A DNA stretch of 64,000 nt from Schmidtea polychroa. Taxonomy: Eukaryota. Location: NCBI GenBank assembly GCA_044892525.1, contig CM097885.1, positions 35,156,001 through 35,220,000 on the forward strand, written 5' to 3'. Positions 52,983 through 53,229 of this stretch are shown here, in pieces; the first letter of the stretch is position 1, and every line of letters begins with the position of its first letter. The notes under the pieces are model-generated. The model had not been told where the DNA came from and did not search any database. It saw only the letters and a list, made by a program, of their open reading frames with translations. A program made the translations under genes and the position numbers.

Positions 52983-53229
52983 AAGTAGTGAGGAATCTAT
53001 GCACCCCAGCACCCCCACCCTAAAAAAAAACAGCGCTATTGACCCATATTTTCCACATTTATATGCTTTTTTACCCCATATTCTTCACTTTTTTTAACTT
53101 TTAAACTTTGTCCCCTATTGCCATTAACCCTTAATTTCTTCCCTTAAAAGTAAAAAAGTTCGGAATAGATGTATTTATAGATTAGTAATTCCGAGAAAAG
53201 ATAACGGGTGCATAGATTCCTCACTACTT
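52983..53229. repeat. Terminal cassette bounded by a perfect 24-bp inverted repeat
   Basis: AAGTAGTGAGGAATCTATGCACCC (52983-53006) / GGGTGCATAGATTCCTCACTACTT (53206-53229). Confidence 0.95.

Follow-up and report, generated by a model that had tools for sequence, protein, structure and literature searches.

A Polinton terminus in Schmidtea polychroa carries a perfect inverted copy of its own tip

Results and discussion

A Polinton in the genome of Schmidtea polychroa begins with a tip that recurs, as a perfect inverted copy, inside the same terminus. The cassette bounded by these two arms lies at the true tip of the element, tip and inner arm stand on one continuous element, and end fold-backs recur patchily: some Polintons have them where their sisters do not. 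The inner copy is most likely a tolerated, recurrent by-product and not a required device, and we hold the chances to be about even that the tip was duplicated by copy-back, a recurrent event, and that the duplicate spread to both terminal repeats and would form a local panhandle. The sequence analysed, here called the window, comprised 64,000 nt of assembly GCA_044892525.1 (CM097885.1:35,156,001-35,220,000, forward strand), and all coordinates are relative to it (Table 1).

Table 1 Features of the main element and of the relic, in window coordinates.
Feature	Position	Strand	Basis
Outer arm, the element tip, starts AGTAGT	52984..53006	+	Sequence; X1 empty-site contig departs from the window at 52984
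Spacer, ~199 bp, C-rich on its top strand until a switch to G-rich near +180	53007..53205	.	Sequence
Inner arm, perfect inverted tip copy, ends ACTACT	53206..53228	-	Sequence and contigs
Rest of terminal repeat, with 16 bp tandem repeat 53235-53270 (~2.3 copies)	53229..53315	+	Sequence; contigs stop or branch at 53315-53325
Inferred terminal inverted repeat, ~332-342 bp, holds the cassette	52984..53315	.	X4 depth and second continuation; far end beyond the window
Protein-primed family B polymerase, 1464 aa, begins 160 bp past the inner arm	53389..57783	+	PF03175, E 2e-15; homologues
Separate open ORF directly downstream, 59% identical to the C-terminal 165 aa of the polymerase, which it duplicates	57808..58362	+	Comparison with the polymerase
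A32-type packaging ATPase, two ORFs	62936..63726	+	Matches ATPases of related loci
rve-type integrase, C-terminal part, exits the window	63738..63998	-	E 6e-29 to integrase profile A2
Relic cassette, second family, 252 bp, 13 bp perfect arms	24432..24683	+	Sequence comparison
Broken N-terminal polymerase fragment (~aa 44-150)	24684..25012	+	tblastn E 6e-18; begins at the base after ACTACT

The tip and its inverted copy

The tip motif AGTAGT begins at 52984 and ACTACT closes the cassette at 53228, giving a length of 245 bp. Its outermost 23 bp (52984-53006) and innermost 23 bp (53206-53228) are perfect reverse complements, which confirms the observation in an earlier note on this DNA that the tip recurs as a perfect inverted copy inside the end, with the refinement that a 24th pair (52983 A with 53229 T) lies outside the AGTAGT motif; the main contigs of two sequencing runs, X3 and X4, have one extra G and hence a 24 bp arm. 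By chance, an inverted copy of a 23-mer is expected ~1e-12 times within 600 nt (independent, identically distributed letters). As single-stranded DNA the cassette is predicted to fold at -33.3 kcal/mol (z = -7.9), with none of 200 shuffles folding equally well, and the minus strand of the longer terminal repeat is predicted to pair the same arms. The spacer (53007-53205) exhibited no significant structure (interior z = -1.12) and no residual palindromy, its self-palindromy being equalled by 168-370 of 500 shuffles.

The element reads as a genuine Polinton, to judge from its protein-primed polymerase, rve integrase, packaging ATPase and AGTAGT tip, in agreement with the earlier assignment of a Polinton terminus beginning AGTAGT. 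The integrase piece in the window is the C-terminal 86 aa, and the first member of the profile it matches (A2) in turn matches rve and Chromo; the ATPase profile PF04665 is weak in the window and passes in locus L013. Two further ORFs, at 60111-60875 and 60924-61388, find homologues at related loci but no Pfam label; they are candidates for a minor capsid protein and a protease. The left flank of the element is a decayed hAT transposase.

Other repeats and transposons occur elsewhere in the window. A 28 bp perfect inverted repeat with a 23 nt loop lies in AT-rich DNA at 4890-4968, a 692 bp stretch between 18 bp perfect inverted repeats (42955-43646) is probably a MITE, and at 43705-48227 a transposase ORF (45218-46942), presumably piggyBac-like judging by its sequence, sits between hAT transposase pieces on the opposite strand.

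The cassette lies at the true end of the element

Contigs from four of seven public sequencing runs were placed on 52600-54200. The X1 contig covers the flank up to 52984 and then continues with 171 letters unlike the window, an empty site, which implies that 52984 is the true tip and that the cassette here is not a solo insertion; a joint from the flank to ~53237, or to post-cassette sequence, was absent among the joints listed for this run. Single contigs of X3 and X4 begin at 53023 and reach 53315 and 53325, unbroken over the inner arm and with no branch at 53228. The proposal that the terminus is itself a ~245 bp cassette held in that the cassette stands at the true tip, but a longer repeat, of which it is only the outermost portion, extends to ~53315-53325. 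X1 coverage was missing over 53032-53193 and present over 53194-53301, which the tandem repeat may explain.

One rival is that an unrelated MITE, the case named beforehand as counting against the reading, or a solo unit entered at this single locus and left an 8 bp duplication. It draws on the 8-mers flanking the cassette: that at the inner junction and that in the host flank are alike at 7 of 8 positions (P ~1.2e-3, one length tested), while the junction 6-mers differ, so that no 6 bp duplication is present at the cassette. The contigs largely refute it, as the sequence past 53228 is fixed in X3 and X4, which are without this flank, and as the X1 flank contig turns to unlike sequence at the tip itself. 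We regard such an insertion as highly improbable, and on the contigs we reject the near 8 bp match as a duplication made by it.

The depth of the contigs bears on the far end of the element, which lies outside the window. In X4, the cassette contig had a depth of 40.3, the polymerase contig 20.4 (ratio 1.98), and in both X3 and X4 a second continuation follows 53325. The doubled X4 depth and second continuation make it likely that the repeat, with its cassette, is present at both ends, an indirect answer to the earlier question of whether the far terminal repeat carries the cassette, as it comes from depth and branching and not from the sequence of the far end. It is possible, alternatively, that a sister element has only this end in common. 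In X3, the cassette contig reached 438 and the polymerase contig 105-154, an excess that may come from gene-less elements with common ends.

Two further observations concern abundance and spread. In X5, single element contigs over 52978-54200 reach depths of tens of thousands against a flank depth of 175, and a variant replacing 53262-53331 occurs at depth 24467, reflecting high copy number or amplification; summed X5 depths cannot be read as copy numbers, and no case for replication was built on them. In X3 and X4, which carry a second organism label, the element is near-identical over 53023-54200 (2 differences in 824 letters) with the flank missing, pointing to either very recent spread, transfer or a matter of labelling.

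Inverted arms around a spacer would also permit the segment between them to flip, and the earlier note had suggested an invertible end. Seven joints were found in the four runs, all of them skips and none a change of strand, even though the X5 output extended to skips with depths of only 134-528, where summed depths are near 1e5; one rare X5 contig, at depth 343, jumps from 53179 to 53236 and so omits the inner arm. Contigs drop rare forms, and replication intermediates may be absent from genomic contigs. Taken together, the absence of strand-changing joints, the unbroken X3 and X4 contigs and the X1 empty site leave both inversion and solo insertion unsupported here, and we consider an invertible end scarcely credible.

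A second cassette in a relic

A second cassette, of another family, lies at 24432 in the window. Its arms match perfectly over 13 bp and at 19 of 25 positions, for which the expectation is 2.6e-5 per 600 nt (independent letters) and which 1 of 500 shuffles equalled in arm score. The fold of the whole relic cassette is not significant (z = -1.14), and its interior is unstructured (z = +0.85) and holds no decayed palindrome. Within their first 13 positions the arms of the two families show 4 differences, matched between outer and inner arm, and the C-to-G switch near +180 is found in both window cassettes. Homology between the two interiors was considered on a first sign (1 of 500 whole shuffles) and rejected when this was lost against block shuffles; the interiors align no better than local-composition shuffles (49 and 50 of 500 as good). 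The earlier claim of the same architecture in the relic therefore stands for the arms and for the length (252 vs. 245 bp), but not for the interior, where homology is not demonstrable. The further claim, that pairing had been kept while sequence diverged, does not follow, as the same pattern would arise if each family had copied its own tip independently, and as the copy is missing from sister elements.

In the relic, the inner end of the cassette joins the polymerase frame precisely at codon 44, the start of a zinc finger (aa 44 onward). The cassette also contains an ATG, at 24636, whose frame is that of the inner arm and of this zinc finger, though a stop interrupts it at codon 10. Such a junction could be the work of an integrase: a mini-Polinton (the left ~220 bp plus a 23 bp right tip) would have inserted into the 5' region of its parent, its outer end becoming the new terminus while the old tip was lost. 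This route is also in keeping with the resemblance between the inner-junction 8-mers and the host flank of the main element (7 of 8 positions for the main element, as above, and 6 of 8 for the relic), and with a solo 165 bp AGTAGT...ACTACT element at locus L089 (292-456), which has a perfect 6 bp duplication and an empty paralogue. The latter is situated ~1 kb upstream of a Polinton polymerase and is a candidate mini-Polinton. Target-site duplications of Polintons measure 5-8 bp and usually 6 bp, however, and at the usual length the junction 6-mers mismatch; the host flank of the relic agrees with the other three 8-mers at only 2-4 of 8 positions, and homology in the zinc finger would begin at its first cysteine anyway. 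No solo copy of the window family occurred among the pieces listed, and the X3 and X4 contigs are unbroken at 53228. We therefore judge the integrase route unlikely as the source of the inner arm. The L089 unit does show a solo cassette, in part bearing out the earlier suggestion of a minimal satellite unit and of solo cassettes to be sought, whereas for the window family the unbranched contigs and listed pieces gave none.

End fold-backs recur patchily among Polintons

To survey other ends we gathered 102 loci by polymerase alignment, 101 by integrase alignment and one record end, with some overlap. Short AGTAG...CTACT pairs were sought in 1.82 Mb including the window, where six passed, while five shuffles gave 0, 1, 0, 1 and 0. 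The six were the two window cases, L065, L068, L089 and L173. L065 has a 137 bp end fold-back upstream of the polymerase, in the layout seen in the window, and L068 one of 72 bp; L173 (98 bp) was rejected as a terminal case as it sits inside a 414 bp palindrome. In a uniform test of other candidate Polinton ends, 3 of 20 had an end fold-back (L065, L068 and the L167 subfamily, ~60-137 bp), a proportion that is not an unbiased frequency, as two of the positives were found by the pattern search and 10 of the 20 ends were called by motif alone. The survey called for in the earlier note thus uncovered further inner copies, but also sisters without one in two cases.

The L167 subfamily carries a ~60 nt hairpin at ragged ends that lack the AGTAGT motif; the hairpin is present in 9 of 9 copies of the L167-type tip, all in one arrangement, whilst the inner arm was found in none of six copies of the homologous L154-type tip. 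Similarly, L024 has its tip in common with L068 and is close to it on the polymerase tree, yet the inner copy is absent. No fold-back was found at L090 (both ends), L029 or L044, nor before the ATG in L023, the closest relative (51% identical), whose tip is missing. Cassette length thus ranges by lineage over 245, 252, 137 (L065), 72 (L068) and ~60 bp (L167 subfamily), and L065, L068 and the relic all have imperfect arms. The cassettes occupy three rows of a quick polymerase tree, built from the window and 99 of the 102 loci; these rows require three changes and do not cluster, and the window, L023 and L065 fall on one branch at a support of 93, which is below the starred level.

Several other candidates were set aside: weak scores at L006 and L009, where the contig starts are not convincing termini, and a match in G001/L005, a 40 nt stretch with no link to a terminus. 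The exact tip was not found in the viral contigs searched, and a single-protein scan and a second integrase alignment gave no matches. Strong hairpins that are not tip copies occur within the Polinton end regions of L029 (134-192) and L032 (1-90). The ragged tips belong to a multi-copy family with polymerase and integrase and without AGTAGT (L162-L171 and L179, with ends near 14730-14980, together with L152-L160 and L186), one subfamily of which has the 60 nt terminal hairpin followed by an inverted tandem array, with several copies in tandem.

Origin of the inner copy

In the copy-back reading, the protein-primed polymerase would slip during strand-displacement synthesis from ~+222 onto the tip and then back, and the result would be copied to the other end by homogenisation of the repeats or by end repair through a long panhandle. 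The displaced single strand would then fold into a short local panhandle exposing a duplex tip, with a second integrase-type end and occasional 245 bp mini-replicons as side effects. We favour copy-back because cassette lengths vary across lineages, because sisters (L024 and the L154-type) are without the copy and because the tree shows no clustering; imperfect arms in L065, L068 and the relic, together with unstructured interiors, are as expected for decaying copies. Against it stand the near-equal lengths (245 vs. 252 bp) and the shared C-to-G switch in two divergent families, which fit shared ancestry plus upkeep equally well. Perfect arms in the young family also count against it. A second integrase end and mini-replicons should be costly, which points to either a benefit or recency, and the inner junctions look like possible products of an integrase, that of the relic lying exactly at ACTACT and that of the main element resembling the host flank.

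A selected replication device is a rather doubtful alternative, in which the inner copy would rebuild a duplex origin locally, or would prime synthesis from its folded 3' end, without a 15-20 kb panhandle. The perfect arms of 23-24 bp in a young, abundant family speak for it, as do the predicted folds of both strands and the occurrence in two families here at near-equal length and in three lineages outside; moreover, in the accessible text on Streptomyces telomeres, palindrome I pairs with palindrome IV and the 3' end is extended in vitro (PMC4513846). Sister elements without the inner copy, imperfect arms outside the window and unstructured interiors within it argue against such a device, and hairpin transfer should yield both orientations or strand-changing joints, whereas none of the seven joints changes strand and all nine L167-type copies have a single arrangement. 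It is likewise doubtful that several lineages independently evolved and keep a selected fold-back end, whose unit, equipped with a pair of origins and a pair of integrase ends, would be a 245 bp mini-replicon able to depart as a satellite (compare L089). We retain copy-back, with the inner arm as its by-product, as the preferred reading.

Significance

In the accessible text, Polinton replication rests on a proposed 'racket' intermediate (PMC4196379), and a 245 nt end that pairs with itself makes concrete predictions. These are a local fold-back, extrachromosomal 245 bp units and deletions that end exactly at the inner ACTACT. Such an end would also offer polymerase and integrase alike a small substrate of natural origin. 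Even if nothing more than a by-product, it documents repeated slipping of these polymerases onto their own tips. For annotation, these ends resemble MITEs and may wrongly be entered as elements in their own right.

This is apparently an undescribed, recurrent variant of the Polinton end, any function of which is putative. The earlier note held that an inner inverted copy was not described, and our literature search agrees, in that no description was found in the accessible parts of PMC8097293, PMC10748475, PMC11296320, PMC8502044, PMC8363768, PMC6431247, PMC4196379, PMC4046053, PMC4513846, PMC11886824, 10.1101/2024.01.15.575659 and 10.64898/2025.12.11.693146; such ends may be recorded in Repbase or in the supplementary files of PMC8097293 and PMC10748475.

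Comparison with known systems

As in the hairpin ends of parvoviruses and AAV, the 3' end of the cassette could fold back and prime its own synthesis. Parvovirus and AAV ends occur in flip and flop orientations, whereas here a second orientation was not seen (7 joints and 9 L167-type copies), and the element is double-stranded and bears an integrase. Adenovirus minichromosomes that arise from an inner inverted origin are engineered and not natural.

Polintons (Mavericks) are described with terminal inverted repeats of 46-1447 bp and (AGT)2//(ACT)2 ends (Barreat and Katzourakis 2021, PMC8097293, accessible text). The element studied here resembles them in its AGTAGT tip, in a repeat of ~332-342 bp that falls within this range and in its polymerase, ATPase and integrase, but differs in that its repeat contains an inverted copy of its own tip, a feature described nowhere in the accessible text of PMC8097293, where the words 'hairpin' and 'panhandle' are also absent. 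Casposons, in the portion of PMC4046053 available, are similarly self-synthesising elements whose terminal repeats contain internal inverted sequence; they are, however, prokaryotic, use a Cas1 integrase, and their palindromes are not described there as tip copies.

Streptomyces telomeres offer another parallel, as there, too, a linear replicon with protein-capped ends has terminal bases complementary to sequence further in, although the accessible account of these telomeres (PMC4513846) describes conserved, packed hairpins patched by Tap and Tpg, whereas the spacer here is unstructured and its length varies by lineage. A further comparison for the proposed fold is the whole-genome panhandle, or racket, model for the replication of Polintons, adenovirus and PRD1 (PMC4196379 and PMC11886824, both in part); according to PMC11886824, panhandles lack direct evidence even in adenovirus and PRD1. 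As in the racket model, outlined in those portions, inverted ends would pair on the displaced strand and can homogenise the ends; unlike it, the possible panhandle here would be local, closing a 199 nt loop at each end of the element instead of joining end to end.
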